Source: Holosporales bacterium (GTDB lineage Bacteria > Pseudomonadota > Alphaproteobacteria > BNTO01). Taken from it: a stretch of DNA of 30,680 nucleotides. Where the stretch lies: positions 1-30,680 of the forward strand of contig JAIRNU010000078.1 of the NCBI GenBank assembly GCA_031257945.1. Reading direction: 5' to 3'. Made by a program: the position numbers and the translations under genes. Shown in pieces: positions 2,856-29,423 of the stretch (the first letter of the stretch is position 1; every line of letters starts with the position of its first letter). Below the pieces are notes generated by a model. That model saw only the letters and a program-made list of their open reading frames with translations, was not told where the DNA came from and ran no database searches.

Positions 2856-3830
2856 TCACATGTGTTTGGTATTGGGCACCAAATTTCTTGTAAGGAGGTG
2901 TATATCATCCGCCGTTTGTACGGAAAACATTGGGGCATCAGGGGCACACCGTCGTACTATTCCAGTAAGAACCGCCCCATGTCCAACTTCCAGCAAACAA
3001 TCCACTCCTAGCGCTAATATGGCGCTGACGCTCTCCCGCCAGCGTACGGTCCCTGTAACCTGCTGCGGTAGCATTTCTTTTATAGTAGAGGCGCTTTGCA
3101 CCGCCTGCGCAGTGTAATTTGCAATCAGCGGAATCCTGAGGTCACGCATGTTTACCCCGCCAAGCACCGCGTTCAATTTTTCGGCTGCCGGGGCCATCAG
3201 GGCGCTATGAAACGGCCCGCTAACTGAAAGCATTACCCCCTTCTTTGCGCCCTTATCAAGCGCTGCCCTACGCACCTCCTCCACAGCCAGCAACGGCCCA
3301 GAAACAACGCACTGCCCCGGGCAATTATCATTTGCAATAAAGCATTGCGGGGTGCCGTTGCCGCAACAGTCAGTGATAATATCACCAACGGTTTCGGTGT
3401 CTAGGCCTAGTATAGCGCACATCCCCCCCTTATCCGCGGGGGTTTGCGGACAGGCAGCCTCCATTGCACATGCCCGTTCCTTGATTACCAAAAGGCCTTG
3501 ATGGAATGTTAGCCCGCCAGCAGCCAATATCGCCGCATATTCACCGACAGAATGCCCGGCGACACAGCGAACAGACTGGAAAAATTGCTCGCCGTAGACC
3601 TCTTCAATTGCCCTTAATACCATGGCGCTGGCGGTAAATATTGCTGGCTGGGCGTATTGCGTGGAGGAGAGTAGTTCTGTTGGGCCGTTAAACATAATTT
3701 CCGTTAGGTTGATATGTAAAATATCGTTTGCCTCTTGGGCTAGCGACCTAACAGACGAAAACGCGTCGAATAACGTTTTTCCCATCCCAACGCCCTGCGA
3801 TCCTTGTCCAGGGAACACCATTGCAAGCAT
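2856..3830 (-). CDS. fabD: Malonyl-CoA:ACP transacylase
   Basis: FPGQGSQ, catalytic GHSVGEY, ANDNCPGQCVVSG, VSGPFHS, VRWRESV; AAGGA upstream of the ATG. Confidence 0.97.
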   Translation of the reverse strand: MLAMVFPGQGSQGVGMGKTLFDAFSSVRSLAQEANDILHINLTEIMFNGPTELLSSTQYAQPAIFTASAMVLRAIEEVYGEQFFQSVRCVAGHSVGEYAAILAAGGLTFHQGLLVIKERACAMEAACPQTPADKGGMCAILGLDTETVGDIITDCCGNGTPQCFIANDNCPGQCVVSGPLLAVEEVRRAALDKGAKKGVMLSVSGPFHSALMAPAAEKLNAVLGGVNMRDLRIPLIANYTAQAVQSASTIKEMLPQQVTGTVRWRESVSAILALGVDCLLEVGHGAVLTGIVRRCAPDAPMFSVQTADDIHLLTRNLVPNTKHM

Positions 3831-3890: not shown

Positions 3891-4073
3891 GCCTCAATAC
3901 CCCGCACATTCAGTTGCGCCTTGGACCGTATTTGTGTAAAAACTTAATTCCCATGCGTCGACTGCGTATCACAAGGGATAGCGGAATGCGTATGGTGCTG
4001 ATGTTTCTGCGCTAACGACCGCGTTCGGCCAAGTACATACGGCTTAACAAAAACGACCCTATGTGCTTGAGGC
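3891..4073 (+). ncRNA. ssrS: Probable 6S RNA
   Basis: About 183-nt intergenic rod. GCCTCAA/TTGAGGC, GCACAT/ATGTGC and TTGGACCGTAT/ATACGGCTTAA pair; an asymmetric central bubble and apical stem (CCATGCG/CGTATGG) follow. CCTTGGACCGTATTT resembles E. coli 6S CCCTGAGCCGATATTT. A -10-like TATTCT lies at 3879-3884. Folded by eye only. Confidence 0.55.
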
Positions 4074-4173
4074 AAGAGTTGTTGATAAAAAAAGCGAAGA
4101 CAAATGTCGCATTATGTTTTAAATATTAACTGTGTGGCCTTTAAGTAGATATATCGATATGGCGTATATTTGA

Positions 4174-5301
4174 CTGGATTCCAGCGTTTCTTCCTTGATT
4201 GATGCGATTAGTGGGAAGATTCAATCAATAAAAACTTTCTCGAATTTTGAAAAAAAGTGTGAGGAGTTGTGCTTTTACGAGGCGTTAATAGCCGATCCAT
4301 CGACGTGGAATGATGTAAAAAAGGCGAATGAACTCGCGAAAAAAAAGGCCTCGTTGCAGGAGGAAATTGAGCAAATTTCATTGTGCATACGCCAGTTCTC
4401 TGATTTGCGAGAGCTGTTGGATATGGCAAAGGAGGGCGGCGATGAGCAGGTGTTTAACGAGTGTATTACAGAATTGCAAAAGTTAGCGGCTGATGTTGAG
4501 CATATACACCTTGTGGCCCTGCTTTCCGAGGAGGCTGATAGTTCTAACTGCTTTTTGGAGATTAATTCTGGCGCTGGTGGGACCGAAGCGCAGGACTGGG
4601 TCGCAATGCTGGCTCGGATGTACTCTAGGTGGGCGGAGCGGCGCGGATTTTCGCTAGAGGTAGTCGATGAGATGATAGGAGAGGAGGCTGGTTTTAAGTC
4701 CATCAGTATGAAGATTTCTGGGCTTCGTGCGTATGGTTGGTTAAAGACAGAAAACGGCGTACATCGGCTTGTCCGAATTTCCCCGTTCGATGCTAATGCG
4801 CGGAGACATACGAGTTTTGCTTCTGTATGGACTTACCCGGAAACCAACGACGACATCGATATAAAAATAGAAGAAAAAGACTTGCGCATCGATACGTACA
4901 GGGCTTCCGGCGCTGGCGGGCAGCATGTTAACAAAACAGATAGCGCAATTCGTATTACGCACATTCCTACTGGAATTATTACACAAAGTCAGGTTGATAG
5001 GTCACAGCACCGTAATAGAGCAATGGCAATGGCCTTATTGCGCGCTAGGCTTTACGAATTGGAAATGCGGAAAAAACAGGCATTTTTGGCAGAGCAGGAA
5101 AAAAATAAGACCGATATCGCTTGGGGGAATCAGATTCGCTCATACGTTCTACAACCCTATCAGCTGGTAAAAGACTCCAGGACGGGTGTTGAAGTTGGAA
5201 ATGCGTATGGGGTACTTGATGGTGATATAGATAAGTTTCTCGAAGCATCATTGGTTGCTAGCAAAACAGGGCGTGATGGAGGGGATGGCTCCTCTGATTA
5301 A
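4174..5301 (+). CDS. prfB: Peptide chain release factor 2 (start uncertain: CTG 4174, TTG 4195, or ATG 4159 through an in-frame TGA)
   Basis: RF2-specific SPF motif (RISPFD), GGQ motif (GAGGQHVNKTDSA), GAGGTEAQDW, QIRSYVLQPY. Homology to the alphaproteobacterial RF2 N-terminal helix appears to begin at 4174. Confidence 0.96.
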   Translation: MDSSVSSLIDAISGKIQSIKTFSNFEKKCEELCFYEALIADPSTWNDVKKANELAKKKASLQEEIEQISLCIRQFSDLRELLDMAKEGGDEQVFNECITELQKLAADVEHIHLVALLSEEADSSNCFLEINSGAGGTEAQDWVAMLARMYSRWAERRGFSLEVVDEMIGEEAGFKSISMKISGLRAYGWLKTENGVHRLVRISPFDANARRHTSFASVWTYPETNDDIDIKIEEKDLRIDTYRASGAGGQHVNKTDSAIRITHIPTGIITQSQVDRSQHRNRAMAMALLRARLYELEMRKKQAFLAEQEKNKTDIAWGNQIRSYVLQPYQLVKDSRTGVEVGNAYGVLDGDIDKFLEASLVASKTGRDGGDGSSD

Positions 5302-5302
5302 G

Positions 5303-5439
5303 TAGACCGTTGCGAAAGCTTCGTTCTTTCGGTAATTTTGGCGTCGCTCCGATGCTCGAATCCTTACGTAAATACGCTGTGGTTCTGTTTCGTATGCTCC
5401 TAAAAATTCCTCGAAATTACTCACTTTTGCAACGGTCTA
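5303..5439. repeat. RPE1-like palindromic element copy (137 bp) between convergent prfB and giant gene
   Basis: TAGACCGTTGCGAAAG...CTTTTGCAACGGTCTA; aligns to 2363-2508 with 1+5+2+1 bp deletions. Confidence 0.9.
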
Positions 5440-5504: not shown

Positions 5505-8500
5505 CTAGTATCGCAGGGTAAATAACGCGCGATCTAAAAGAGAACCGAAGTTAGAAACGATTTTTGTTTGCTGTAAGAAAGTATCCTTTTCGGTTAGGGA
5601 CTTCCCGCGGTCATCCATAATTGGCAAACCATGTTTATCAAATTTTGTTCGGTAAAGGAGGTTTATCACGTTTTGTCCGTCCTCTGTTGTGGTCATTTTT
5701 CCTACTAAATCCAGGAGGTCTGCAGAAAAAATTTGTTTATCTATTGTTTGGATAAAATAAAACAAAAGAGTAAAGTTATTTAAAAGGTGTTTTATTATGC
5801 TGTGAAGTGTTCTAAAACTATCGATAACTTTCGCGTGAGTGCAAATTTCGCAGCCCTCCTCTATTTGCTGCAAGTCATCCAATTTTGAGGAGATGGTCGC
5901 GATGTTAACATCCGTTTCGAACATATATAATGGAAGTAATGGGATGCAGTTTCCTTCTGAGTCAACGGTGTCAAAATCTGGGAGCGCTGAAAGTTTGATA
6001 TCAAGGAGTTCGTGTGTTGGGTGGATGTTTGGTGCCCACTTCGCAACGCCCTTAATCAATGAAATAATCGATAAAGACAGGCCGTCTATAGCGCTAGACA
6101 ACGTCGTTGGGGGAGGGCTTTGTGCATCTGGATTAGCTGAATCATTAGGATTGCCTGGAATGAATCTTTCTAACGTAGCGGCAAGCATTTCATCAAACGG
6201 CGTGTTGGCGAGGCGTTCTGCAAGTTGATCGCTAACGCAAGAATGCCAATCCCCCGCTAATAATTCTTCTGTGAATTGCTTTAATCTCACAATACTTTGT
6301 AAAAATTTAATAATAAACACTTGGTATTGCTCTTTTGTGCAATCGTTGTCATTAGTAATATTGTCGGCAAGCAACCTTATCGTAGAGGAAAGGCTATTGA
6401 TGGCAGATATTAGTTTGAGATCGCACGGTGGACGGTGCAGTACGCTTACTATGGCGTCGAACTTTCTTTTCAAAAAGTGTACTTCTTCGGCTAATGCGGT
6501 AAAAGTCGCCCCACTATACATTACATTATCGTCTGCTATATTTAGCAGCGAATCGTATATCCCATTTATATTATTGGAAATGTGTATTGCTTGGGTATAT
6601 GTTTCTTCCGAAAAAGCAGGCCTTACAAAGGCGACTTCGTCTCTAAGCCAAATAAAAACCTCCGCTAAAACGGTAATTTGTTCCCTCATAGAGTTAAGAT
6701 TGGTTTTGTATAATGCTGCTGCGTTTTGGTATTGAGGCGTGTCGTTGCCATTCCAATAATCCTCAGGTATATGGTCGAACAAAAGTGCGAATTCTAGCGT
6801 TTCCTTGGCTAGCCCAAGGAAAGCCTCGTCTAACAGGCTGGCAGCAGGGGGGGCTTCTTGCGTGCTATCCAATAATTCAGCAATATTATTGGTGTATTGC
6901 CTCCATATAGTAAGTATATCGGTGAATGGTATGCTTACCAATTGCTCTTCAAATAATTGAGCTGGATCGTCGAGGGATGCCATTACTTCAACGGCTTTTG
7001 TGAATTTTCTTAAGTGCTCAAGGATTGCGCTAACACTGTTTGCTTTTTTGATTCCCTGACTTCGAGAGAAAATATTCAGGAGTTTTATGAAAGTATTGAC
7101 GATGGAATTATTCCCTGAATAGATACCCTGTATTAGCTCTTCCTCAAAATGGAAATCAAACAGGATCCGATTATAGCAAATACTTTTTTCCTTCATCATT
7201 TGCGCAAAATTTTGGATATTCAAGGAAGTATTGTTGAGTGCAGATATAATAGATGATATTGCGGTTAATGTATCGCTGTGGGATCCATTTATTTCGATAC
7301 TTGATACTTTTGCGACAAAATTAAGCAATACTGTGTTTATATTCGCGTGGCTTGAGCATATTGAAGATAAGATTTGTTCATACGAAATTGCCTCCTTGAT
7401 GTCTTCTTCTTGGGGCAGGGCAGGGGGGATGCCGAATTCCGCAAAGAAATTAGCAGCAGATAAATAGATATTGTTTTGAAGGACTTCGTTTATGCTGTCT
7501 ATATATGATATTAGCTCGCTGCTCTGGCAGAATACTTCGAAAGAGGCGGCTGGCAAGGAGTTATACTTGGAAAAAAGAGGAACGAAGAGGCTATTTAATA
7601 ACTCGATACTGTTGCTTATTTCAAGAATATTGGAGGTATGCGTCCCGTAGATTATATCGGCTGGCTGTATACTTATGTTATTTACGTTTTCTACAATCGA
7701 ACTAAGCGCGTTGAATATCCATGCTGTTTTTTGAAGTTTCGTGTACAGCCCGTGGCAACAAAATTCCTTCAGTGCGTCGTTTTTGACGGCTATACACGAG
7801 CGAATCAGCCTCAGAATAGCATTTGCGATATTTTGCATCGATGCATTAAAATCCTTTTTTACGCAATTAGCGCATAGTAATTCTTTATCGGCTGGAAGTA
7901 TAAACGTAATTAGTGTGTTGTAGATGTTCTGGCACGACAGTATTAATGCATTTAACGCAATAGACGTTTGTTCAAAATTTTGTAAAGAGCACGCTATTGT
8001 TGGCGCCGCTGTTTCAAATGAGAGCGATAAATCGTCAATAATATAGGAAATTTTGTTTAAAAACCACGGGAATTCCTGGCAAGAAAAATCAAAAGGTTCT
8101 TGCTGTTGCAGGCTAGGCTTTGGGATGCTAGTATTTATTAGCAATTCTTCACAATCATCTTTAAATACTTGTAGTGTTTGTGCCAGCGTAATAATTTGCT
8201 CATTTATATACTTGATTCGGCAGTATTCTTCGGTTTGGGGAACATGGTTTCTCGCGTCTTCCAATGTTATTAAATCTGTTGTTATTTTATTTATATTTTT
8301 AGTTATAATGTCCGCGATATTAATAATTAAACCAGAATTATTTTGTGCTTCATGGTTTAATATTTCACCAATAAACATTTGTGCGGCGGCTAATTGCTCT
8401 TGGGCTTGAAAGAGGTGAGTAAAAGATGACAAACAGCAATCTTCCCCGATACGCGTACTTATTTCTAAAAATTCGTCTGCTAGTTTTTGGTACATATCTT

Positions 8501-11500
8501 TTAATTGCCATAAAACCACTCTAATCCCCCTGTTTTCAGCGCATAGGCAATCGTCTCGACAGCACGGTAGGCACGTATCGCATTCCCGGCATACCGCAAA
8601 TTTTTCGCAAAAGAAGCCCTCTTTCCACTTATCATACGCGCCAAGGATACTTTCAGATACATCAGCAAAAGTTTCTGATAGGCCCTTTATTTTTGCAAGG
8701 AAGTCCGATGGCGCGGTAAGCCTTTTTTCATATGTGTTTTGCATCAACCCGTGCAGTGCCGCGTAGAGGTCTTGATGTGATGACAACGTATTAGCGAAGG
8801 TTTGCACAGCTGTTGCGTACGTCATTTCGTCTGTGGCTAATGGTTTGTATACATTGAAAATAGCGGAATTTGGGAAGTATATAGTCAAAATGTCAGCTAT
8901 TTCGCTGGCTTTTACTATGATTTTCGAAATGCATTCGGCAGCTTGCTCCATATGGCATTCACCATTTATTTCGATATCCTCTATTTGCTTAATAACTGTC
9001 ACGATTCCGGGGGTAATCCCGTCCTTTTGTGTAAACAACGATATAAAGGAGTCAATTGGCAACGAGCATATATTGCTCCAATTAACTGTTACGTATTCAG
9101 AAATTCCATTTATTACTTCGGCTATATACGATGTGTAGTAATTATAATGATGCAATTGCTTTACTGTATCTAAATAGCAGTATCTGGCAAGAATTTCTTG
9201 CAAAGATTCTACACCTATTTGCGCGTTATCAATTAATTCATTCCAATTTTCTGGAATGGCGCCGGTTATACTGTCTTGCTCTGCCTCACAGTAAAAGCAA
9301 AATAACTCCATTTTCGTGGCAAGAATATCGGCTATTAATGTCTTTAACACTGGGAAAATAGGTTTTATTTGTGTCAAAAAGTTGAATAATTGGCGAACGG
9401 CAGGGAAGTGAAATTTCTTATGTTCCAATGCGGCGCATTGCCCGCAAATTGCGTCGTTAAATGCGGCGAGTTGCTTGAAACCTTCGCTTATTGCGCAAAA
9501 CAGCGTGGGGCAGCGGTATGTTGCAGGGTGAATAACGGAAGACTCCGCTGGGGGGTGAAACGCGGTTATTAGCTTATCGACAATGGTCTTTATTTTTAAT
9601 ACGTGTTCTATTTGCTCCACAGCTATGCAGTAACCATCGGATGTATCATCCCCATTGTTCTCTATATTTTCTTCTTGTTCTTGGGGGAATAATTCGTCGA
9701 TAAGCATCGATACCGCGGATACTGTTTCAAGCAGTAGCGCGCCAACAGTGGTTTCCCCTGAGGCAATGTCAATAATCTCATCGTAGCCTTTTATTTGTTC
9801 GGTCAAAATACTTGCCGAGTCCAATAATGTGAAAAGCGTGTATACAAATGTAGAGCAGCATGTCTTTTTTAATATAGTACTTTCTTGGATAAATAAATCT
9901 GGGATGCGTGTGATAGCCGTAAAGGCATCAGCTAAAAGGAACTCAATGCTATTTTTATTTTCGCGCATGCACTCTGTAGGGCTGTAATTAGCCTGCAGGG
10001 AATTTAATAGGTCAGTAAAAAGCGCAGCTAATGTTCCGAAGTACTCCGCGGATTCCGGGTGAAAGTCTTTGACTACGTAATTATCTGAAATATTAACGCT
10101 TTCTTGTATTAAATCTGCTAGTGTGTGCAAATCCGCATTAATCCTGCTGATTAATACTTCATTTGTAACTGTGGTGGTGGGGCCGGCGAAATCATCCGGT
10201 AAATATGTTGGAAGATCTTGGGCAAAAGCCCTCAGCGCCGCGTTTGTTTTTAAATAAATATTGTGCAGATTATCGTCGATATCAGTCAATCCGATGTATT
10301 CAGCGAAATTTATTACGCGGTGCGGGCACACATATTCTTCATTTAAAGAATTTATATTGCTTAATTTTGTGATAGATTGAGGAAAATTTGTTTCCAAAAT
10401 ACTAGTTATTTCTCGCATAGTATTTATAAACGTCGAATGTTCCTCTTCTTCCAAATTTTTGACGAATTGGTTTTTAGTAAATGCAATGGTTTTATTGATT
10501 GCCCTTATGCTGTTATCAATATCAAATAACTTATCGACTTTATGCGGGACGGCTGCGGTTTTTTGCAAAACATCTATAAATTCCGTGTGCGAGTTCAGGA
10601 GGCCCTCCATGGCATCTTTAAGCGGTATTGGATCAGGGACCATATCGTTTTCGCGGATATTATTGAGTATCTCGCGGAATAGTTGCGCCGCTTCTTCCCA
10701 TTTATAGTGAACAACTGTATGGTTAAATAAATCTGTAGTTTGGGCGATGTAAAAAGAATTATTGAGTGATTTTATTATTTCGATTAGCGAGGCATAATCT
10801 CTTTCAATTAGCTGGCCATTGTATGTTTGTGCAGGATAGCCAGCTTTTGGCGGCAAATATACCCCTAATGCCATAAGTTTATCCGTCAATTGTTCCACGC
10901 TATTACTTAAGATTTTATTAACAGAAGCAATAATTTGTGTTTTTTCTGGAAGTGAGGCCGCCGGCTCTGCGGGAACATCGCGGAGGATTTGCTTATACAT
11001 AAGTATTACATTATCGATAAAATTCGCGAACAATTGCACTGTTGTTTTTCTTGCGTCACTTGCGTCTATTCTTAAAAACAAATCCATCTGTTGCGCGAGC
11101 GTTTCAACTAATGCTACAAACTCGTGAAACTCTTTAGCGTATTTTTTGTAAAGCCTATCCTCCATTTGTTGAATAATTTTAAATAATTCTTCTTGAGTTT
11201 TACTTAAAGACGAAATAATCTCGTCGTAATAATATGTATTAGAATTGCAATTTTGGCACACTTTATTGGCAAAAACAGAACAAAAGCGCGCGACTGTATT
11301 CTGAAATTCTTCCACTCCGTAAAGCAACGTTACCAGGCTGTTTTGCAAATTTTGCTGGCTTTCGTAGATGTTTGACGCTTCGGCGTATTGCGTAAAAGCA
11401 TTCAGCTTACCAACAATATCGGCAGCTTTGGCATCAATTAAATCTAAGATTGCAGATACCTTTTGGCAAAAGAGCTCTTCAGAAACGATATGCGCAGTTC

Positions 11501-14500
11501 CGGGCTGCTTTTCCCCGATCAATAATAAGGCGTTACATAAGGCCTGCGTCGCACGGTATAAAAATCTGCATGTTTTTTTCATGTGCGGGGCGATGGCCGG
11601 CGCATTGCAGTGTGCATCTTCTTGTAATTGAATTTTGCCCAACTTATGGGAGGCAATATTTAAACTACATACGGCTTTATTTATATAATTAATCGCCTCA
11701 TCAATTTCTCCTTCTTCAAATATATGTTGATCTATATTTAAATACGGGATAGCGCCATCGAACCCAAACCCAAATTGCTCCAATAAGGAGAGGATGGAGT
11801 ACAGGTACTCATTGCGCGCTACACAACACGTTGGATGTCGCAAAAGGTCACAAATGGCGCTGATACCTGTGACCATGCTTTGGAACACTTGGTCAAGAGC
11901 GACGAAATGCTCTGCCGAGCAAAACCAATTCCAGTCTCCCTGAGCGTACGTACTCTGCATTCCTGAAAATGTTGCAATTATGGCGGATAATACGTCAAGT
12001 ATTTCCTGATCAAAGCACCGCTCATTTCTTTTGGTTCCATTCTCAGATTGAATAACGCCTTTCCACACGGTGATAGCACCGTCCACACTGCATAACGCAT
12101 TTTGCAAGGCGAAAAGGCTGTTTTCAAAGAATTGTACATCGCCGCGGTGTTTTTCTACTGGCTCGATAATAATCGGTTCTTTGTCGTTATCTTGTGTGTA
12201 TTGTTGTACTAAGTCGGTTATATTTTGTACAACAAGTCCTACTTTCAGAAGTTCAAGAAAAAGATTGCGGCGGTCATACTGAATATTTTTTATACTTTCT
12301 ATATGTGTTAATAATGTACTTAACTCGCTTTCGATTAAACTAAGACAAGCTTTTGTATTATTAATATTATTATTTCTAAACAAAAGTAATTTAATATCCG
12401 AAAAAATTGGGAACAAACTGATAATTTTTTTGACAGCATATGTAAGGTTCGAGTAAATCGTATTTTCATATTCAATAATTGCTGAGTTGGAACTTTGTAC
12501 CCCGTCCGCAACATTTGCCAGCAAATCCAGAGTATCTGCTTTAAAGGTCTCCGTCGGTCTTCCACGAATCGCACAAACTTCCCCATTTATCAGGAGGAAT
12601 TTTATGTACTCCATGGCGTCTATTTGTTCAGCCAAAACAGTATTAACCCCTTGCCACGAGGACTGTATGTTTTCATAAAAATCGACGTCTAAGTTGGCAA
12701 GGTTTTTTGCGAGGGCACCGGGTTGCACTTGGTACTCGTTTGGCGGGTCTTTATTTATTGTAAAAGTATTCTTTATGTCGTTCATTTCATCCATAATACG
12801 AAGTGAATCGGAAACAATTGCCTGTAGTATATCTAAAATATAATTATCTTTGTCTATTTCGGTAAAACAAATTTGGTAATTCCCAGATTCCATTCTTGGA
12901 ATTATTTTGTTGGAATTTTCACATATTTGTTGAAAGATTTCCTTTATATTATCGATATATCCCGAAATATTTTCTGAACATTCTGTATCCAAAGAATATT
13001 GTTGAGCCGCCAATATTATTTCTTCCATAACACTATTAATTCCCTCGTAGTTGCTGGAGATAGCGGTTATTTGATCAAGGTACTTTTGGCAGGCGTCGTT
13101 ATGCCCGTACGCTAGCCCTATTTTTTGCCAGGAATCAATAATGGCCTCAGACGGGAATAACGTTTCAGCAATTTCTTTTTCTAATGGCGTTACGTTGTAT
13201 GTGAAGCGTATCTTGGCCCAGCGGGACAGATGAAACGCCTTATAAAATATCTTTGAAACGATATCACTGGATACACCTGTTTCAATGGCATCTTGCAAAA
13301 TAGTATTAAACAAAGCGTCATCTTTTGTTTTATTGTGTTGCAGCGCTTCTACATCTTCTTTTATTTGCTGTTCTGAGAAGACGACTTGAGGTAATTGCTC
13401 AAACTCAACCTGTTTTTCAAGGTTCATATAGTGCAGGAAAGCTTTTTGGCTTTCGTCTATTTGTCGCAAAAATTGTACAAGTGCGGGGAAGCCACACTCC
13501 TGCGGTCCCTCACCGATTTGTTCAAAAAAATTGTTCCAAGTGTCAAACAGAGAAGTTATTACTGGCATTAATTCTGGCGCGTGAAGTATTTCCGTAATTT
13601 TGAAAAGTCCAATTAATTTTTGGATATTTAGGTTGTTTTGCAAAATATTATGCACCGCCTCAGACAACATCGAATATTCCAACGCCTTTATCGTGTCTTT
13701 TATCGTGCAAAAACTTGCTTCTAATGAATTAGTCCATTGCAGCATATCATTTACAGACGCGAATATTTGCACCGGGTTGCAACTTTCGCAAGTAATGTGC
13801 TTGCTCTTCAACAAAGCAAATGCCGTGGCCACAGTGTTAACCGCAGTTTGCAAATTATGTACTCGATCTTCGAATGCTTTCTTATATGGAATGGGAACAC
13901 CGATTGGCGGCGATACGTAGTAGGCTAACGTTTCGCAAATGTCGCGTATTTTGTGCAGAGTTTGTTCGATTTTGTACAAAAAAACTTCTTTTTTGGCGCA
14001 ATTATCGATATTTTCTACCGCTTTTAGGTTTAGCGATTGCGTTGCGGGGATCCCGTACACACCCTCTATACATAATAGGTTTTCATTTATAACTGTGGTG
14101 CTGTTTTTCACACTACTAAGCAATGCCGAATACGCCGCGTCTAAGCAATCGAAATCATCTACTTTGCCAGATAGCGCAGTGCTTATGTTAAGCAGCTCTG
14201 CCGTTATACAATCCAAGGCAAACAGGATGTCGGCGTCTTGCTGCGCAGCAAGTGTTTGCTGCGCCTTTGGAATAATTTTGGCAAAAGAGTGCGCACAAAA
14301 GTAGAGTTGAGTACGGATTTGATCAATAATCGTGGCGGTCTCCGTACAGCAAGTCGGATGCTTTAATTGTGTAGAAAAGTTATGTATTGCTTCTTGTATG
14401 TTTGCCGTATTATATAGTAAATTACTTATATTTTCTGATATTATTTGATTTATATTTATAAAATCGTAGTCGATTTTGTATGGAGCCAATAGCCATTCGT

Positions 14501-17500
14501 CGGACAGCATAGTAAATCTCTTCGCTATTTCCATCAAAGCATTGCGTATTCTAATGTCTGTAGATTCAGTGTGAATGTCCTCAAATATCGGGACTGTAGT
14601 ATTTGCAATAGCGTGTTCGCCGAAGGCATTCTGAGCCCAATCGGTAATCTCCTCTAAAATTTTTATGTGTTGTTTGCGAAGGGCCTCCGTTGCCTTTCCA
14701 TGCTTTTCAATGGCGATACTTTCGTGCAATATATCCGTATTGGTTTTAAGTTTTAATGAAGTTTTCGCAAAGTTTGTGAAGAAAGTTTTAGCTTGTGAAA
14801 GAGTGCTGTGTTGTATTAACTCAGTATAAATTGATAGTTGTTCTATTATTGCTGCAATTTCGTTGTGGAAATGCCCTTCGTAAGAGGGCTCTTTATGTTT
14901 TATAATGTTGAACACGCGGCTAATATTTAATTTTATGTCATTAATACCTCTCGCCAAAGAATAAAGTATAAGCGAACATTCATGAACATTTGGTATTTTG
15001 ACAAGGCTGGTGGCCAAAGCCACATCGCAAATTTGATTTTGCAAAAAATCGAGCGTCCCAATTAATGTCGATAATAAATCCACTATTTCTTCGTGGAAGC
15101 GAAGTATATCATGTCCGGCCAAAGTGTTCGCGAGCTCATTTATTGCATCTGCGATGTAAAGAGTATACTTATATATACGCGTTAGTGAGACGGCAACCTC
15201 AGGCGCTCTCGCGAGCGGATATACAGGAGGCGGATCGCTTTTTGTTATTGCGAGGACGTGGTCGGCGCACAGAGACATTGCGGTCACTATTCCCTGAAGT
15301 GCATTTGATAGGCCCGTAAGCGGCGGGTTATTCTTGTATTCTGACATAGTGTGCAGCTCTTGCTGCGTGGTTTCCAGGTCTGGGCCGCTACCAACCAAAT
15401 CTGCGAGTTCGTTTCTCACGGTATCAGCTGGCTCGCCAAAATCCAGATCCTCCACGAAAAACGGGCTCAGCGTTTTTGCGGCGGTTTCGACTTTTTTCGC
15501 GGCCTCTTCCAACAAAGTTACGCTATCTAAGATAATGCTTATGTCGTTTACCTGTGATAGCGCGATAAAGATATCCTCGAAATCGTCGGAAATTTTATTA
15601 ATTTCGTCTTTTATTTTTGCGGATTTCTCCTCAAAGGCCGCTTGATTATGCAGCAAAGATTGCGGTGCTGTTGCTGTGGCAAAGAGCGCGGCCAGGCCCT
15701 TCAGCCTCAAAGCAATAGCTTGAATTTGGCTTAGATTTTCAGGCGTTATAACGTGCTTATGGCTTATAATAGCCTCGTTTATTATGGCAGCATCAACGTG
15801 GTGTGCGGCTAGGGCTTCGATTATGCGGTCCCAGTAATGCGCGGCAATACTAGGCGTATACGGGAGAATTTCGACAAAGCTACCGGATACGAAGTTAAAC
15901 ATTTCGAAGATTTCTGCTACTTTTTGCAAATTAATGCTCTTTTGGGCGCTATGAGCTGGGTGATTTAGCGCAGAAAATAACGGGGCGCTCATTGTGTCCA
16001 AAAAAGCCGCAAACTCCAATAAGGCGTCATTCATGTCCGTATCCGATTGAAAAGCCAAGGCCGTCAGCTGCGAAATAAATTCCGAGCAAGACAACACGCC
16101 GCTGCAAATTCGGCCTAACGCCGCGCCATCCTTTTTATCGCAGCAAAATATTGCTAGAGAGTCCTTCAGGAAAATAAACGTGACTTTGACATTGCTAACA
16201 GCGTCAATAGCTTTTTCGAAAAAGTCATTAAAGTCGTCGGCGTTAGCGTCTGCCCGATCAATACATTGTTGGCAAAATGTTCCAAAAGGTGATGCTTTAT
16301 CAATAAGATTGTCTAAAAATGCAACTACAGAATCCAAAGTACTTATAATGTTATCGATAGCGCTAAAACTTGAAGAATTAAATGGCGTTGTTAAGCCGTA
16401 ACTTTGCACAAAATGCACTGTGTTCTTTATTTCTAAATAAATTGCATTAATGGCATTTACTATATTATTGTTCACCTCTTTAACTAAAAGGCAAAATACA
16501 TCAGCTTGGGTAAGTTCTTCTACTTGATGTACCTGTGGAACTTCTTCATCAGATATAGTCGCATTGGTTCCGTTAAGTACGGCGACAATGCTGCGCAATG
16601 CAGTGTTAATATAATCGGATTTGCATTTGCCCGTTGGACTAATCGGTTCATCGTAAATTGTTTGAATATAATCGAAGTATTGTTCTAAAGATTCTTTATC
16701 AAAAGCAGCAGCAATATTGTTTAATATAGTATTAACATCTAGCGTATTGTGTAGGGGATTTGTGATAATATAATTTATATTATTAGCAGTATTTGTGAGC
16801 GCAATTGCAATGTCCTGAAGAGTTAGTACTAAGGAGGCACAACAAAGTGATGCATCATAACAATCGTGTATTTCCATTACTTGCTGATAAAGTAAAAATA
16901 ACGCTTGATGAAGGGATGTGTAGTTTTCAATCCAATCCTCGTAAGTAACGATACCATTATTGTGTGCATCGATTATTGTGTATATATTTTCTAAAAATGG
17001 GGTAAGTGCCTGTGATTCGATGTTTTCGATTTGCTCGGCGATAGCTTTGAGGCTAGACGTGATTTCCCCATTTCTAACAACTTTTGCTGCATTATTTTTT
17101 AATTCCGTCACAACAGAGCTCAGGGCGCTGGCATATTCCTCAAAAATAAGGGGAAGCAGCGCGATATCCTGGCAAAGTACGGCCTCACTAAAAAGCGGTG
17201 GATCAGCAATCAATGCCGTGTTATCTTCCTCCCATTCCCCATAAAACGAATCCGTTACGACATCTTTTAGTTCTGGTTCGAACGTAACTGCGGCGTCGAA
17301 GATTTGCGCATATGCTAAAAGTGCGGCGTGGTAATCCTCGGAATCGTCTCCTATTTCTATACTTTTAAAATCGGCAATAAATGTTGCAATTTTATCTGAT
17401 ATATACTTTACGGCGTTATTTACTTTCTTGTTGTTGAAATCATCGATATTTGCTGAAGAATTTTGTATTGCTGTTGTTATTTGATCGCATGATGATATTT

Positions 17501-20500
17501 GCTTTTTTAGTGTATTCAGGAACGTCCTAAAAGAAAAAGATATTCCCTGCCAGTAGCGTACTTCAAGATCAGCCATTATTGGCTCGATTACTTCAACGAT
17601 ATTGTCCATTTCGTTGCCAATATCTCGCAGGATATATTTATCAAGAGAATCAGTTCTTGCGCAGAATTGTATTTGACTATTAGAAAGGTCGTGTAGCGCA
17701 GCTTTCACCGCTAACAATGCATCCCTTAATGACGCGAACGAATCTAATACTTCTTTAGAGTATGTTTGGTCAATATCCATGTTTTGTCGAATGTGTTGTT
17801 CGAGTATCGCAAAGTAACCATCCGAAGGATTACTTAATTCCCGCATATTTTGTAAAATTTTCGTAAGATAAACCGCAATTTTTTCATGCTGGACCGCGTG
17901 CAGGGCATAGCTACTATAATCTGACGGCAAAGACCAAGCCGTTGCCTCGATAATATCGCTGCAAGATGCGATGGCATTATAACAATCAGGGAGACTGTCG
18001 TTTATATCCGAAAGCATTGGGGCAATGCTTTCCGCTCTATCCCGGAAAAGGCCGGCGGGAGCATGCTGAAAAGCGGAATCTATAGATGAGATATAGCTAC
18101 CGATATTAGTTATTTCCTCCGAAATTTTGGTTATTTGCTCGGCGATTAATTGCTTTTGTGGCGATGGCGTCGCACCAATATCATCATCGGTTTCTGGTAA
18201 CGATGCCACGCACACGTTAATTTTTAATAAAATATTTCGTACAGCGGTGGCAACGGTTTCTCCGCATGGCGGGTTGTTGTTGTTTGCAATAACTTGCCCT
18301 GCCAAAGAAACAATATCTTTTAATATTTTCTCAATATTTATATATACACCGTTGAATATATCAGTCTCTTGTATGGCATTAATAATATATTGTACAAATA
18401 TCCCACTAGTAATTATTAAATCAGAAACTATAGGATGTGGCGCTAATTCTGTTTGCGCAAACCAATGGCACAGTTTAGAAAAATTTGAAAGTATGTCCTC
18501 GCTCACCTCTATAATTTTGGCCAAATTGATTTCGTATTGCTCTTGCGTAATTTGCGCTAAAAAGCTTCTGTTTGTTACTTTTTCTACGTCAAAAAGGGGT
18601 TCTTTCGTCCAAATTGCGGCTTTTATTAACGTCGTAATTTTTTGTATAGAGGAAATAACATTGCCGTTAACTTTTTGCGCAACGATTTTTTTGATGCTGT
18701 CAGCGAGGCTATAAACAAATTTATCAATTTGTGGAGTATTCGTTGGGTCAATAATATCGTTGTCTAATAAAAATTGCAGTACTTGGGCGAGTTCTTCTAA
18801 TGGTCCAAGTAATTTATACTGTGCCTCTACTTTCTTTTTAATTTTAAATTCTACATAAGTTTCAGCTAACAAACCCAGTGCATCAGGCTTTATCGCTTGT
18901 AATAAATCCTGTTGGTGTGCGTGCAATGGTTTCTCGCAAAAAACGCACTGGGAAAGGTGCTCCAAACCGTCGCTGTTTTGCAAAAAATCTTGCAACTTTG
19001 TTTTCATTATATGTATGCGTGTGTGGGCCTCGCTTAACTGCTGATGTATTTCTTCCGAATAAATTAGGTATTCGCCTTTCCAATAAATCGCAAGGTCATT
19101 AATCGATTCAAAAATTGCATTGAGTTTTGCAGTTATACTTGTTAATGCAAATGTTACTCTTTCGCTAGCGGGGATTTTATCGTAGTCCTTTTTGAACGGC
19201 TCTATATCAATGTTGTAACACAGCAATATAGTTCTGATCGCATTGCAAAGGTCCTCTGTTTCACTTTCTATTTGGTCAATACTTTGTTCAACAGTAGGCA
19301 GGGACAGTGCATCTGGTATGGTTTTTAAAATACTGTTTATACTAGATATATACTCGTTAATAGGTAGCGCTGGAATAGCTCCGTTCTTTTGTAGATTTAC
19401 TATTTGCTTAAAATATATTGCTAAATTAGTAATATTTTCCTCTATATTAATTATTTTTGCAGTATATATACGGCACGCCTCATTATCCAAAAGCTTTTGC
19501 ACAAAAAGGCCGATGTTCTGCCGTATTTGCCCGCAAATTTCGCGAATTCCCCCCAGAATGGCAGCTTCTTCAGCTTTGCGGAATGCGTTGCACTCAGGGC
19601 ACTTCGCATAAAGTATAGTTGAGTCTTTCATTATATCATTAATGAAAGAGGAAATGTGCTGTAGAGAGTCTACTGCATTTATACTGTAAAGATTTGTATT
19701 TATATTAGCGAAAATTGTGGCGATATGCTGTTCAAGTAAAACACAAATACTTTCAAGAATTTCTTTAATTAAATATAAATCCCCCATTCGTTGAGTACAG
19801 GAAAATTTGAATGGAGGGATAGTATTAGCCGCTTCAGCCGTCTCAGCAACCTCAGCTGTTCTAATTAAACGGTCCAAAAATTCGCTTATTCCAGGAAGAT
19901 CTAACGGGGCGTGGCCTTGGGGTTGTAGTAATAGCTGGTTCTCTAACAGCGCCATTACCGTTTCATCCGCCGCGGCCCGCAGTATATCTTCAAAGCGCAA
20001 TAATTTTTCCAATATATTGTGTGTATATAGCGCAGTATTCGCGCAGCATTTATCGCTAATACTTTCGGCGATTTGCTTTATGGCAAAGGAAAGTTCTTTG
20101 GTAATATCGTGCAACTCCTGCAAAGCAAGTGTTTCTTGTATCGAAATGCTTTGGTTTGTACATTTCTGGCATGAGTACTTGGATGTAATGTCCTCTAAAA
20201 AGGGCAGGCTATTATCCGCGCCTAAGAAACTATTCGCGATATTTACAATTAAGTTTTTGTATTCCGTGTTTACCGCGGCGTCGAAATCTTTTTCTAGAAT
20301 ATCTGCAATATCGTACAGTTGTGCCGTTATCCCCTTTAATAATACGGTATACTTTCGCAAGTATACGTCTTTGTAATCCTCAAGCGGCACACTGAAATAA
20401 TCGAAATCGAAATATGGTGCCGCGAAGTCTATATCGTCGTATTTTTGGGCGATAGCGTAGATCGCAGCACCAACGGCGGCAATTTTCTCTTCCGTTGGTC

Positions 20501-23500
20501 GGGTGCGCAGTGTGTCGAGCAAAGTATTAAGACAGCCAAAAGACTTCGCCAACACTTCTTTTGCGGACTTTGTACCTAAGTTCGATTTTATTAAACTTAA
20601 GGCATACGATATTGTATTTGTGACTTGAAGCGCCCGCGCGAAAGACATTTTTTGTTGATTTTCGCAAGTATCCGGAAGTCGAGCGTTTTTATCCGTATCA
20701 TCCGATATTTCGTTTAAAATTGCGATTAATTGTGGGGAGTTAATATTACTTTCCGCACATAGTATTTCGTGATCATATATCGTCCCCGCCAATGAATGCA
20801 ATACGGACGATGCCTCAGAAAGGGCTCCGCGAATGCCGGCGTTCTTATGATTCTGTCCGCTAATAAATGCTGTATAGTACGATTGTTTTAACGCACCGCT
20901 TAATGTACTTAAACAATGGTACAAGTTCAGGCATTCGTTGCAACTCTCCTCTATACTTTCAAACACGTCAGGGGGAGCAAGCGCAATCGCCCAAGCCCAT
21001 ATATCCTCTATCCACGCCAGCACGTCCCCCATTTCTTGCTGAAGACTTGCGTTTTCTACATCTGTACTAAACGCCTCAAATAAACGCGCATTGTGAAGGA
21101 GTATTCTTGCCGTTTGTACAATACACCTTTCCACGGTCGCCCCAGCATCCAACAAATTTGCCTCTTGGATTTGCTGGGCAATTGCTTTAGCTATGTTAGC
21201 GCACCGCCGGAAGATATTCTTCTTTGCCGTTGTGCAATGGCGCTCCTCTCGAGGATACAAAGCGTCATACAGGTAGAGGGCTTGCGCGGCCATTCCCTTA
21301 ATCTTTTCCTGAATTTCCCTTATTATAAGTATTTGTTCTTGCGAATAGCTATTCACCGGGCCCTCTATACCAATTTCTATATTAGCTATTCCGTAAAGTT
21401 CCGCACTTATGCGTTGGATCGCCTCCCGCTCCTCCATCGAAAAATTGTAATTATTTATAATAGTATTATTGCAAATATGTACAATTTTATCCCCGATATT
21501 TGTTATTTGTTGTAGTATCCTTCTCAAATATACATTATCTGTATTCTCGTTTTGTGGTATTGACGGCGGAGCATGAGGGACAGGATCAACATCGTAGCAA
21601 TCCTTCCAATAATTAAGTTCTTTAAAAATATCATCCAAGTTTATCCCCGTTTCGCTACTTACCCCTGCCTCAAGAGCTCTTTTTATATTTTCAATACCAG
21701 ATAAAATATAAGAAATATTAATGCTTTGCTCCGATTGTATTAACCGATCAACTATATTCTCTATTTTGTACAATACCGCCGTTATATCATATAGTCTTTG
21801 CCTTATGAATGGTGGGGTTTGCGACTGCTCTGCCAGTACTTTCAACAAAGTCTCCCAATATGTTGAAGTATCAATTATATCGCTACGAAACTGCTCCGGA
21901 TTTCTTATTTCTAATTGTATGCCGCTGTGGTAATTTAGCATATATTTAAAATTCGTAAAGTAATCGGCGTACTCTTTCCAAAAAATTTTGTAAATATTGG
22001 CCTTTTCGGCCAGACCTGCGATCCCCTGACAATCAAGCAGTTCGAGCCCCTCCGAAAATGAAGTCACAATATACTGTACAATCGAATTATACAAAGATGC
22101 GGCTTGTATTAAATTTGGCGCAATAGTTTGTAGATTTTCAATACTTGGGGGAATTGGGACGAACGCGCCACCCTCTCCAATAATTTCGCGTAAATCCATC
22201 CAAAGTTGTGCGATTCTCGCATTGCTCAGCCATGCCTCCGGCTTTTGCAAAAAATTTGAGAGAACCCCGTGCCACCGGTCAAAAATATCCAGGGCCCCAG
22301 CCTTATCTGGATTATTGTAAATTAAATCCCCGACAGCCTGCGTTGTGCAAAGCAAAATTTGCGGAAGCCTTATGCACGCCTCTACCTGATAATAATTTTC
22401 GAAAGAATCCCAAGTCGCCTGCAAAAAATCGAAAGCATCCCGTAAGCCGCTATAAGCGGTTTGCAGTGTGACGGACAAAATATCGCTTCCACTGTTATTT
22501 TCGCAAGACGCCGCTGCATTGCGCAAGACATCCATTACGCCTTCCGCGAAATCGCATATTACTTGCGCCTTAAAGTCTATTGGCTTCCAAAGGTCCGACG
22601 GCGGGGCCGTTGCATTATACGCAAAAGTATTAATATTAGCGGATATTTTCTGAATATACTGCATAACTTTATGACGGATAACTTCTACTAGTTCGTGCGC
22701 ATTTATTTCACTATATCGCAAAATATCTGTAACTTTTTTGCTGCGCCTGTAGTCCCCCCAAACGGCCCCCAATACTTCGTTTACAGTAGAAAATATATCA
22801 CTATAATTATCATCCACTTTTATTTTTTGTGTTATTCCTTGGACAACGCTGTTATAGGAAGTAAATATTTTGTCATGTATATCGGGTAACTCGTGCACAA
22901 CCCGCTTCGTAATGGCTTCGATATTGGCAACAATATCCAAAAACGGCAAAGCCAAAGCCGCGGCTGCCTCGCAATCCTTGTAAGCATTAATATTTTTATC
23001 TACCGTAAGTATTGCTGTTTGTATTTCTCGCAAAAGGTATATCTTTTTCGCCAAAAAGTCTTTCTTAATTTCAATATTTTTTATTGGGCTTTGTAGCAAA
23101 TCCACATACTGTTCCGCCGCATCAATTACATTTTGCATTCCAGAACAAAACGTTTTGAAAAACGAAGAGAGGGCGGGCAGATCGTCTTTGGCAATACTGT
23201 TAAAAAAACCAATATTCCCCTCTAGTATTTTGACATCATTTAAAATCCCGTTTATTAACATAATAATTTGCGGGAATATATTTTCTAATGTAAGCCCTTC
23301 CACGGAAATATCTGCGAAAGTATCTATACCATTTTCCAAAATATCCCATAAATTTTTAACAAGTACCGTAAATCCTGCGAAAAAATCACTGGCCAAATCT
23401 ACGTGCGTATTTAATTCTCTTATTACAAGTAATAATTGGTTATACTCGTTCTGCGAATTATATAATGGCGCCGAACACAAGGCGTGTATTTCATTTGATA

Positions 23501-26333: not shown

Positions 26334-27206
26334 TCATATTTTTCGAGCACATACAATACGCGAAAAATACTCTTGCCCGGATTTCGACAAGACAAAGATA
26401 ACTTTCCCATCAATGCGAAGGTCGACCTTCATGATATCACCAGACGATACTTTCCCTGCATCAATCAATACGGACAGTACATACAGCGCTTTCTCAATAC
26501 CATGATCGGGCAGCTTGACTTCCACGGAATTGCTGAGTTTTAAGTCCCACCGCCGGCCCTGAATAAATGCCATAGCCGCAAGCCGGCCTCTTATATTCTT
26601 GAACCGGTTAATGCTTTTCAATATTGCCGGAGCGTTCGTGCAAGCATTGCGCCCAGACAGTACTGGCAGCCCACGAAAGCATGCATCAATAGGGGCCTGG
26701 ATTTGCTCCCCATCTTGATCAACTAAAACAAATTGATTTTTGTCGTGGTACACGGCAATCGGCTGTCTTTCCGTTATGTAAATATGCAGCCGACCGCAAA
26801 GATTCCTGCATACGCTGGCTTGTTTGACCCACGCAAGCCGCTCTAGTTTGGTCTTCATAGTGCGTACATCGCACTCGAAAATTGGACTCCCGGCGCGAAC
26901 ATTTATAGCATCAAGGATATCACTCTGTTGCAAGCGGTATCGCCCTAGGACCGTTACATCCTTCAAAGTGAATCCTAGCCGCTGTGTCGCGGAATATATG
27001 GCCGTCTCGCAGCAACCAAACAATTTTTGCAAATTATCGTCGTAACTGAAGAAAACCAATCCCGCCAGGCAAAACGACATCAAAAAGCAGCGTCGCCCTG
27101 CTTTTGACGAAAAAAACCACAGCACAGCATGCAGCAAAAGCAAATACGCCTCTGCCGTTAGGCCCCGCTTTTGTGCGGATTTCTTGGACACAACCCTACG
27201 CGCCAC
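26334..27206 (-). CDS. ftsQ: Cell division protein FtsQ
   Basis: N-terminal TM segment, POTRA domain (GFTLKDVTVLG...WVKQASV...ITERQPIA), VLVDQDG, RRWDLKL, KVDLR. Confidence 0.93.
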   Translation of the reverse strand: MARRVVSKKSAQKRGLTAEAYLLLLHAVLWFFSSKAGRRCFLMSFCLAGLVFFSYDDNLQKLFGCCETAIYSATQRLGFTLKDVTVLGRYRLQQSDILDAINVRAGSPIFECDVRTMKTKLERLAWVKQASVCRNLCGRLHIYITERQPIAVYHDKNQFVLVDQDGEQIQAPIDACFRGLPVLSGRNACTNAPAILKSINRFKNIRGRLAAMAFIQGRRWDLKLSNSVEVKLPDHGIEKALYVLSVLIDAGKVSSGDIMKVDLRIDGKVIFVLSKSGQEYFSRIVCARKI

Positions 27207-28421: not shown

Positions 28422-29423
28422 ATGAAAAGGGTGCTGGCGAGTTTACTATTTGTCAACATACTAGCAAGTAACGCGTTTTCAGCGGATGCGCGGCTGGATG
28501 AAAGACCAGCTGAAACGGATTTATTTACGGTAAAAAATACTGCAATTGCTCTGGTTTGTGGGGGGATCACATTTGTCCTTACAACGGTAGGCCAACATGT
28601 AGCAAAGCGATTTTGTTGGAACGTGCCAGGGATTCTCCAAGGCTGGGGGTTCCCCGTAACTCTCGGGGGGGCTAGCTTTTTGGCCTCTTGGATTTACCAC
28701 TACAATAAACGGACAGAATACGTCGTTATCCCCAGAAACGTACGAATCCTTCCCTCTTTTGCAAGGGATCTCAGAGTTCGAACAGTTGAATTTGAAGAAG
28801 GGAGTCGTGTAACAGAGATTCCTTTCGGCTGTTTTGAAGGCTGTTCTTCATTAACAAGTATTACACTTCCAGACGGGATAATCAGAATTCCTAAGAGTTG
28901 TTTTGAAAGCTGTTCTTCGTTAACAAGAGTTACTACTTTAGGTGGTATTGAAGAGATCGGTAGTTGCGCTTTTTATTTGTGTGAAGCTTTAACGTCAATA
29001 AGATTAAGGCAGGTCAAAACAATTGCGGAAAGAGCCTTTCACTTTTGTTTCTCACTTAAAGAAGTATATATTGATGGTCAGGACTGTCGCATTGAAACTC
29101 ATGCATTTGCTAATACTATTTTGAATCGTGCAATTTTTGCTGGAGTCCAAACTATCGATGCCGGAGCTTTCTTCTCAAGTAAGGCCTATATAGATCTGAC
29201 CGAATGTAGCCTGGATATTGGCAACAACGTATCTGCGTTCTTAAGCGGGATTTTTCGAGGCTACAATAACGTTTTCATAGCACACAGCAGTATAGGAAGT
29301 GTTGTTGTTCTTTCTGAAGGCACGTATCGCTTGACTGGGATAGTGGGCGGAGACGGAGTATGGGAAGAGGTCGCAGCGGACGAAGCCAGGAGGCTTTTCC
29401 ATCGACTAAGACACAAAAATTAA
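28422..29423 (+). CDS. BspA-type (TpLRR/LRR_5) leucine-rich-repeat protein with signal peptide and hydrophobic hairpin
   Basis: Repeats IPFGCFEGCSSLTSITLP, IPKSCFESCSSLTRV, IGSCAFYLCEALTSI, IAERAFHFCFSLKEV; signal-like MKRVLASLLFVNILASNAFS; GAGGTG RBS at 28412-28417. Confidence 0.9.
   Translation: MKRVLASLLFVNILASNAFSADARLDERPAETDLFTVKNTAIALVCGGITFVLTTVGQHVAKRFCWNVPGILQGWGFPVTLGGASFLASWIYHYNKRTEYVVIPRNVRILPSFARDLRVRTVEFEEGSRVTEIPFGCFEGCSSLTSITLPDGIIRIPKSCFESCSSLTRVTTLGGIEEIGSCAFYLCEALTSIRLRQVKTIAERAFHFCFSLKEVYIDGQDCRIETHAFANTILNRAIFAGVQTIDAGAFFSSKAYIDLTECSLDIGNNVSAFLSGIFRGYNNVFIAHSSIGSVVVLSEGTYRLTGIVGGDGVWEEVAADEARRLFHRLRHKN

Follow-up and report, generated by a model that had tools for sequence, protein, structure and literature searches.

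The sequence analysed here (the window) is a 30,680-nucleotide contig of a Holosporales bacterium (NCBI GenBank assembly GCA_031257945.1, contig JAIRNU010000078.1), which is contig C66 of a termite-gut metagenome-assembled genome (1.04 Mb, 110 contigs, 84% complete). On its forward strand lies prfB, the gene for release factor 2 (RF2), with an in-frame UGA close behind the proposed initiation codon. The product was assigned to RF2 using TIGR00020 (490 bits against a cut-off of 370), and the SPF and GGQ motifs are both present. Positions 4159–4179 read ATG GCG TAT ATT TGA CTG GAT. The ATG (4159–4161), the TGA (4171–4173) and the RF2 coding region (4174–5298, with the stop codon TAA at 5299–5301) share one reading frame, as was stated in the original prediction, which had been made from the window alone. 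The short first open reading frame (ORF1) consists of the ATG and three codons and closes at the UGA, which is followed by C. All feature coordinates are given in Table 1.

The homologue of the classic prfB frameshift site (CUU-UGA-C), which the majority of bacteria possess, reads TCG AAT TTT GAA (4240–4251); it contains no CTT TGA and is already in a single frame. A +1 shift at 4171 would come to a dead end at the TGA at 4196–4198. Both points had been anticipated and were borne out on reading the sequence. The nine nucleotides preceding the TGA are ATGGCGTAT ATT in the window and are variable in relatives, and no conserved GGNGG or Shine–Dalgarno (SD)-like stimulator was found in these nine nucleotides in the window or in the relatives. 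A match at 13 of 16 positions to the Escherichia coli shift cassette, AGGGGGTATCTTTGAC, had also been reported. The arithmetic of this match is correct, but its significance did not survive comparison, as the relatives retain only (W)TY TGA CT; the rest of the likeness was rejected as a coincidence, as it is not conserved beyond TTTGAC(T).

The reading of positions 4171–4173 as TGA was confirmed in a second assembly. An independent Logan contig, from the probable source run, shows 0 differences over 3900–4500 at a word depth of about 28×, which excludes a sequencing error. As this contig derives from the same sample as the window, it excludes mis-assembly and not a peculiarity of the strain; the latter was dismissed because relatives carry the same arrangement. 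An error of sequencing or assembly, or a decaying pseudogene, might be suspected given the incompleteness and the fragmentation of the metagenome-assembled genome, but the second assembly is identical, the codon is shared with 18 other species-level sequences, and the remaining gene is intact, with both motifs, and under strong constraint. The probability of this explanation is negligible, and in our judgement it is already refuted.

Conservation and translation around the UGA

The order to which the window is assigned in GTDB comprises one family with 10 species genomes of small-genome gut alphaproteobacteria. The arrangement is present in nine of the nine genomes of the order in which the 5′ end of prfB is assembled, and two of the genomes that carry it are termite-gut bins. 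Ten further relatives, including metagenome members, were obtained via the protein database, which gave 19 distinct sequences with RF2 proteins 59–85% identical to that of the window. An ATG, one to three codons and TGA-CTN follow one another in frame in 19 of the 19 sequences of the stop-keeping clade. The ATG is located at codon −4 relative to the TGA in 15 sequences, at −3 in three and at −2 in one, so that the frame is kept although the spacing is one, two or three codons. A conserved ATG-N9-TGA-C in close relatives had been proposed as a check; with this variation in spacing, it was found across the whole order.

The inner stop is TGA in all 19 sequences and the next two bases are CT in all 19. 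The third base of the leucine codon that follows the TGA is G in six, A in six and C in seven sequences, and TTR is never used despite the availability of six leucine codons. Codon −1 is TTT (10 sequences), ATT (six), TTC, TCG or GCT (one each), and codons −3 and −2 are nearly free to vary (pairwise difference 0.63/0.61/0.75). The real terminal stops of these 19 genes provide an internal control: they are TGA in nine, TAA in five and TAG in five, and none of the nine terminal TGA codons is followed by C. An SD-like sequence is found 3–7 nucleotides before the ATG in about nine of the 19, and in the relative L007 the proposed start ATG is directly preceded by TAA TAA. Judged from these counts, the arrangement is far beyond chance and the inner stop is specific to TGA-C. 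The 5′ arrangement was not seen in about 150 RF2 loci of other bacteria that were inspected, and there was no other 5′ case among 242 alphaproteobacterial genomes with an RF2 match. A metagenome scan with alignment A1 and generic RF2 peptides returned distant RF2s only and served as a negative control.

For codons +1 to +8 after the TGA, the pairwise variability is 0.51/0.34/0.75 (codon positions 1/2/3), which resembles the gene body, and it is 0.49/0.42/0.71 for codons +1 to +6 in all 19 sequences; the stretch preceding the ATG has flat values (0.69/0.66/0.74). Over codons +1 to +30, synonymous and non-synonymous codon changes occur in roughly equal numbers in four close pairs. This pattern indicates that the codons directly after the TGA are translated and are under amino-acid constraint. 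In the alignment, the leucine that follows the TGA falls exactly on Met1 of outgroup RF2s without the shift (MTPQD.../MRAE...). No in-frame start codon is conserved after the TGA in the 19 sequences: the leucine codon is CTA or CTC in 13, the first downstream ATG, GTG or TTG is found anywhere from codon +3 to codon +44 among the relatives, and the TTG at 4195 is replaced by CTA in the closest relative (L209, 85% amino-acid identity).

Because the first canonical start varies in this way, the annotated RF2 N-termini are ragged and truncated. Public RF2 gene calls for the clade (P0002–P0028) comprise 290–371 amino acids, starting at arbitrary internal TTG, GTG or ATG codons; they fall short by as many as about 85 residues, and the N-terminal helix is absent from many entries. 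A conserved gate of the kind proposed here would correct the RF2 annotation of the clade.

One relative, L216, has no stop at this position. A maximum-likelihood tree was calculated from the 17 TGA-bearing sequences then available plus L216; together they form one clade (100/99), in which L216 is nested with L217 and L010 (100/99). In L216 (positions 601–720) the sequence is ATG GAT GCC CTC, with the ATG fused in frame to RF2, and in its sister L217 it is ATG TTA TCG TGA CTC. The two ATG codons are at a nearly equal distance from a common upstream TATACTGG motif. On the simplest reading, the leader ATG is the RF2 start codon and L216 has merely lost the gate. As a natural ungated variant, L216 is usable as a control.

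Proposed readthrough autoregulation and alternative explanations

Autoregulation of prfB by RF2-sensitive readthrough of a UGA in the same frame is, in our assessment, the best explanation of the arrangement, with a probability of about 0.7. Full-length RF2 is apparently made only by reading through the UGA; we infer the readthrough itself, the inserted residue and the dependence on the RF2 level. Translation would start at ATG 4159 and proceed through three sense codons, and the fifth codon to reach the A site would be UGA 4171, which stands in the weak context UGA-CU. There RF2, the sole UGA-reading factor, would compete with a near-cognate tRNA. When RF2 is plentiful the tetrapeptide would be released and no RF2 would be made; when RF2 is scarce the A site would remain empty for long enough to admit the near-cognate tRNA, most likely Trp-tRNA(CCA). 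Decoding would then continue in the same frame and yield full-length RF2 extended by five residues at its N-terminus. The outcome would be negative feedback of the kind known from the classic prfB +1 frameshift, but with the frame unchanged; given readthrough as the productive route, this feedback is a consequence of the anatomy. The position of the UGA near the start codon may, we suspect, in addition make termination less efficient and keep further ribosomes from initiating while one waits.

The features that mark programmed readthrough were found at the locus, namely an ORF that continues in the same frame past the stop, a conserved stop and context, and coding constraint downstream. The readthrough step is plausible because, of the three stops in E. 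coli, TGA leaks most, with Trp as the residue mostly inserted (PMC11126739), because TGA readthrough in Bacillus subtilis prfB mutants increases from 6% to 19–54% (cited in PMC7918605), and because C after UGA disfavours termination (PMC5009743). Two weak hints come from the window's own genome: among its real TGA stops, a following C is the rarest context (15%), and TGA-CT is found at three of 130 real gene ends against about eight expected, which may reflect avoidance. The prfA gene of the same genome begins with a plain ATG and lacks any in-frame UAG. The feedback loop suggested in the original prediction draws support from the order-wide conservation, from the constraint after the TGA and from the failure of the alternatives considered below.

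Several observations weigh against this interpretation. The 19 sequences are kin, so that there are fewer independent observations than 19 of 19 suggests; the conservation of codon −1 is not strict, with TCG and GCT once each; and the SD sequence of the window itself is weak. RNAalifold predicted 0 pairs for nine sequences (−40 to +100), and there was no Rfam match at E ≤ 1 around the site. Bacteria usually read through UGA spontaneously at a level of only some few percent, a low yield for a protein that every ribosome needs, and peptidyl-tRNA drop-off on so short an ORF could compete with readthrough.

The alternatives differ in where translation begins and in how the UGA is passed. The ATG-N9-TGA could be a separate four-codon leader ORF, with RF2 starting later by reinitiation or at a non-AUG codon (CTG 4174 or TTG 4195), as had been allowed for in the original prediction. 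The alignment of the leucine codon with the outgroup Met1 fits such a start, as does the TTG at codon +8 of the window, and CTG can serve as a rare bacterial start codon. However, neither codon is kept as a start in the relatives, the first canonical start is preceded by codons under amino-acid constraint, and RF2 in L216 appears to start at the leader's own ATG. Coupling to termination would, moreover, yield positive and not negative feedback. We consider a later start unlikely; reinitiation and a plain non-AUG start both fail on the absence of a conserved start and on the constraint from codon +1. Recoding at the UGA of another kind, either a three-nucleotide bypass or a +1 slip on U-UUU with a second compensating event, is suggested by the resemblance of WTY-TGA-C to the shift-prone NUU-UGA-C of classic prfB. 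Against this, the +1 frame closes at once (GAC followed by TAA, TGA or TAG) in nine of the 19 sequences and soon in the others, there is no matching landing codon, and TTC, TCG and GCT at codon −1 are unable to re-pair, which makes such recoding decidedly improbable.

Dedicated decoding of UGA, by selenocysteine insertion, a suppressor tRNA or a partial change of the code to UGA-to-Trp, has a precedent in a Providencia symbiont that is moving to code 4 and has UGG>UGA in prfB (PMC10540940). In the window's genome (G000), however, no tRNA with a UCA anticodon was present among 31 tRNAs detected by ARAGORN, although at 84% completeness a tRNA gene may be missing. The tRNA-Trp has the anticodon CCA in this genome and in eight relatives (nine genomes), and its anticodon stem has the normal 5 bp rather than 4 bp. 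Matches to the selenocysteine tRNA model (RF01852) are tRNA-Ser(UGA); the model also matches in all control genomes and is otherwise uninformative. No selB was found above the cut-off in 10 genomes, and no conserved hairpin follows the UGA. TGA ends 26% of the long ORFs of this genome, frame pairs split by a single TGA, TAG or TAA number 46, 44 and 41, respectively, with no excess of TGA, and an ORF of 6457 codons contains no TGA at all. The tRNA-Trp, its anticodon stem and the in-frame UGAs all differ from what a UGA=Trp code (table 4) would entail, and UGA is an ordinary stop in this genome. Dedicated decoding is accordingly a very remote explanation for the conserved codon.

Evidence bearing on readthrough of a same-frame UGA was also obtained outside the order. 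A class-wide search flagged genome G133, the order of which consists of one family with 41 reduced gut-type genomes; prfB in this order is shift-less with a plain ATG start. An in-frame N-TGA-CTR is present at prfB codon 31, in the same alignment column, in four of 37 genomes of the order, which represent four genera: L247 (G133), L237 (G260), L243 (G273) and L254 (G280). The four contexts are CAT TGA CTG, CGT TGA CTA, AAG TGA CTG and AGT TGA CTG, and the four RF2s group together in the tree (89/80) on long branches. We interpret the codon-31 TGA as an independent origin of a same-frame UGA gate. The occurrence of the same hexamer elsewhere in the prfB of an unrelated lineage argues for UGA-CUN as a functional signal. 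We lean towards the view that RF2 autoregulation by same-frame UGA readthrough arose at least twice in shift-less alphaproteobacterial prfB, at codons 3–5 and at codon 31, and that both cases converged on UGA-CUN, perhaps a portable bacterial readthrough context that works without RNA structure.

Features of the window

Table 1. Coordinates of prfB elements and neighbouring genes in the window.
Feature	Position	Strand	Remarks
fabD	2856–3830	−	
ATG, proposed true prfB initiation codon	4159–4161	+	In-frame ATG upstream of the TGA in 19/19
Three sense codons (Ala-Tyr-Ile) between start and UGA	4162–4170	+	Only the last (ATT) of conserved type
In-frame UGA, proposed RF2-sensing readthrough codon	4171–4173	+	TGA in 19/19; second assembly identical
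CTG (Leu), supplying the +4 C and +5 U context	4174–4176	+	CT invariant in 19/19; aligns with outgroup Met1
RF2 body, 375 codons	4174–5298	+	TIGR00020 490 bits; coding periodicity from codon +1
TTG, start chosen by the ORF caller, codon +8	4195–4197	+	Not conserved as a start; CTA in closest relative L209
Homologue of the classic CUU-UGA-C shift site	4240–4251	+	Alignment with frameshifting alphaproteobacterial prfB
SPF tripeptide (RF2 UGA/UAA recognition motif)	4780–4788	+	Invariant in alignment A1
GGQ peptidyl-tRNA hydrolysis motif	4915–4923	+	
TAA, real prfB terminator	5299–5301	+	
Terminator-like hairpin and T-rich tail downstream of prfB	5313–5331	+	Consensus scan only
FtsQ	26334–27206	−	
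Ribosomal protein L25	27275–27886	−	

The largest feature of the window is the single 6457-codon ORF on the reverse strand (5505–24878), which occupies 63% of the window and has no Pfam match in either half. At 28422–29423 on the forward strand the window encodes a BspA-type leucine-rich-repeat protein (PF13306, 1.7e-40); this family is common in host-associated microbes. A sigma-70 promoter scan found none, and TTGACT was rejected as a −35 box as there is no −10 element at 16–18 nucleotides and the region is coding. In L007 (G005:C91) the RF2 match holds one TAG, and the alignment extends beyond the TAG terminator into the C-terminal tail region.

Comparison with known systems

RF2 autoregulation was at first hypothesised to work by readthrough of an early in-frame UGA, an idea put forward before prfB was sequenced (Atkins et al. 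2016, PMC5009743). The same authors state that no RF2 gene has a same-frame UGA arrangement, and frameshift-positive and frameshift-negative are the only two classes of species in a 2026 survey of prfB autoregulation. No description of a same-frame UGA in prfB was found in the literature searched, the scope of which excluded most subscription journals. The textbook example of autoregulatory recoding is RF2 frameshifting, and in-frame UGA readthrough would be a simpler design. If this interpretation is correct, programmed readthrough can govern a core housekeeping gene in bacteria, the minimal signal would be a testable stretch of about 6–9 nucleotides, and loss of the frameshift in a lineage need not have meant loss of feedback control.

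The closest parallel is the classic prfB +1 frameshift (Craigen and Caskey; PMC5009743). It concerns the same gene; there, too, a short first ORF ends early in a UGA that is preceded by a U-rich codon and followed by C, and it is RF2 that determines whether translation is aborted or carried on productively. In the present arrangement, by contrast, the main ORF lies in the same frame and not in the +1 frame, a +1 shift being a dead end; the UGA is at codon 3–5 and not at about codon 25; and there is no internal SD-like stimulator three nucleotides upstream. As both the +1-frame body and the SD-like stimulator are lacking, the arrangement should not be filed as a classic prfB switch.

Three other systems share part of this logic. 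In the class-I release factor of Mimivirus and Megavirus (Jeudy et al. 2012, PMC3521657), a termination-factor gene likewise requires readthrough of an internal stop; that factor is viral, however, is a homologue of eukaryotic and archaeal eRF1, and depends on two recoding events (readthrough and a frameshift) at another position. For plant eRF1, Nyiko et al. 2017 (PMC5397192) describe how the factor level is sensed via readthrough of the stop of its own mRNA; that system is eukaryotic, the readthrough takes place at the end of the ORF and acts via nonsense-mediated decay, and the coding sequence is not gated. The prfB of 'Ca. Providencia siddallii' PSAC (UGG>UGA; PMC10540940) is, like the genes studied here, a bacterial prfB with a same-frame UGA that needs readthrough. 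It belongs to a single symbiont, interpreted as being in early transition to code 4, in which 20% of genes have an in-frame UGA, and the codon affected is a Trp codon (PMC10540940). In the order described here, UGA is otherwise a normal stop, and the site is a conserved addition 5′ of the ancestral start that has been kept order-wide.
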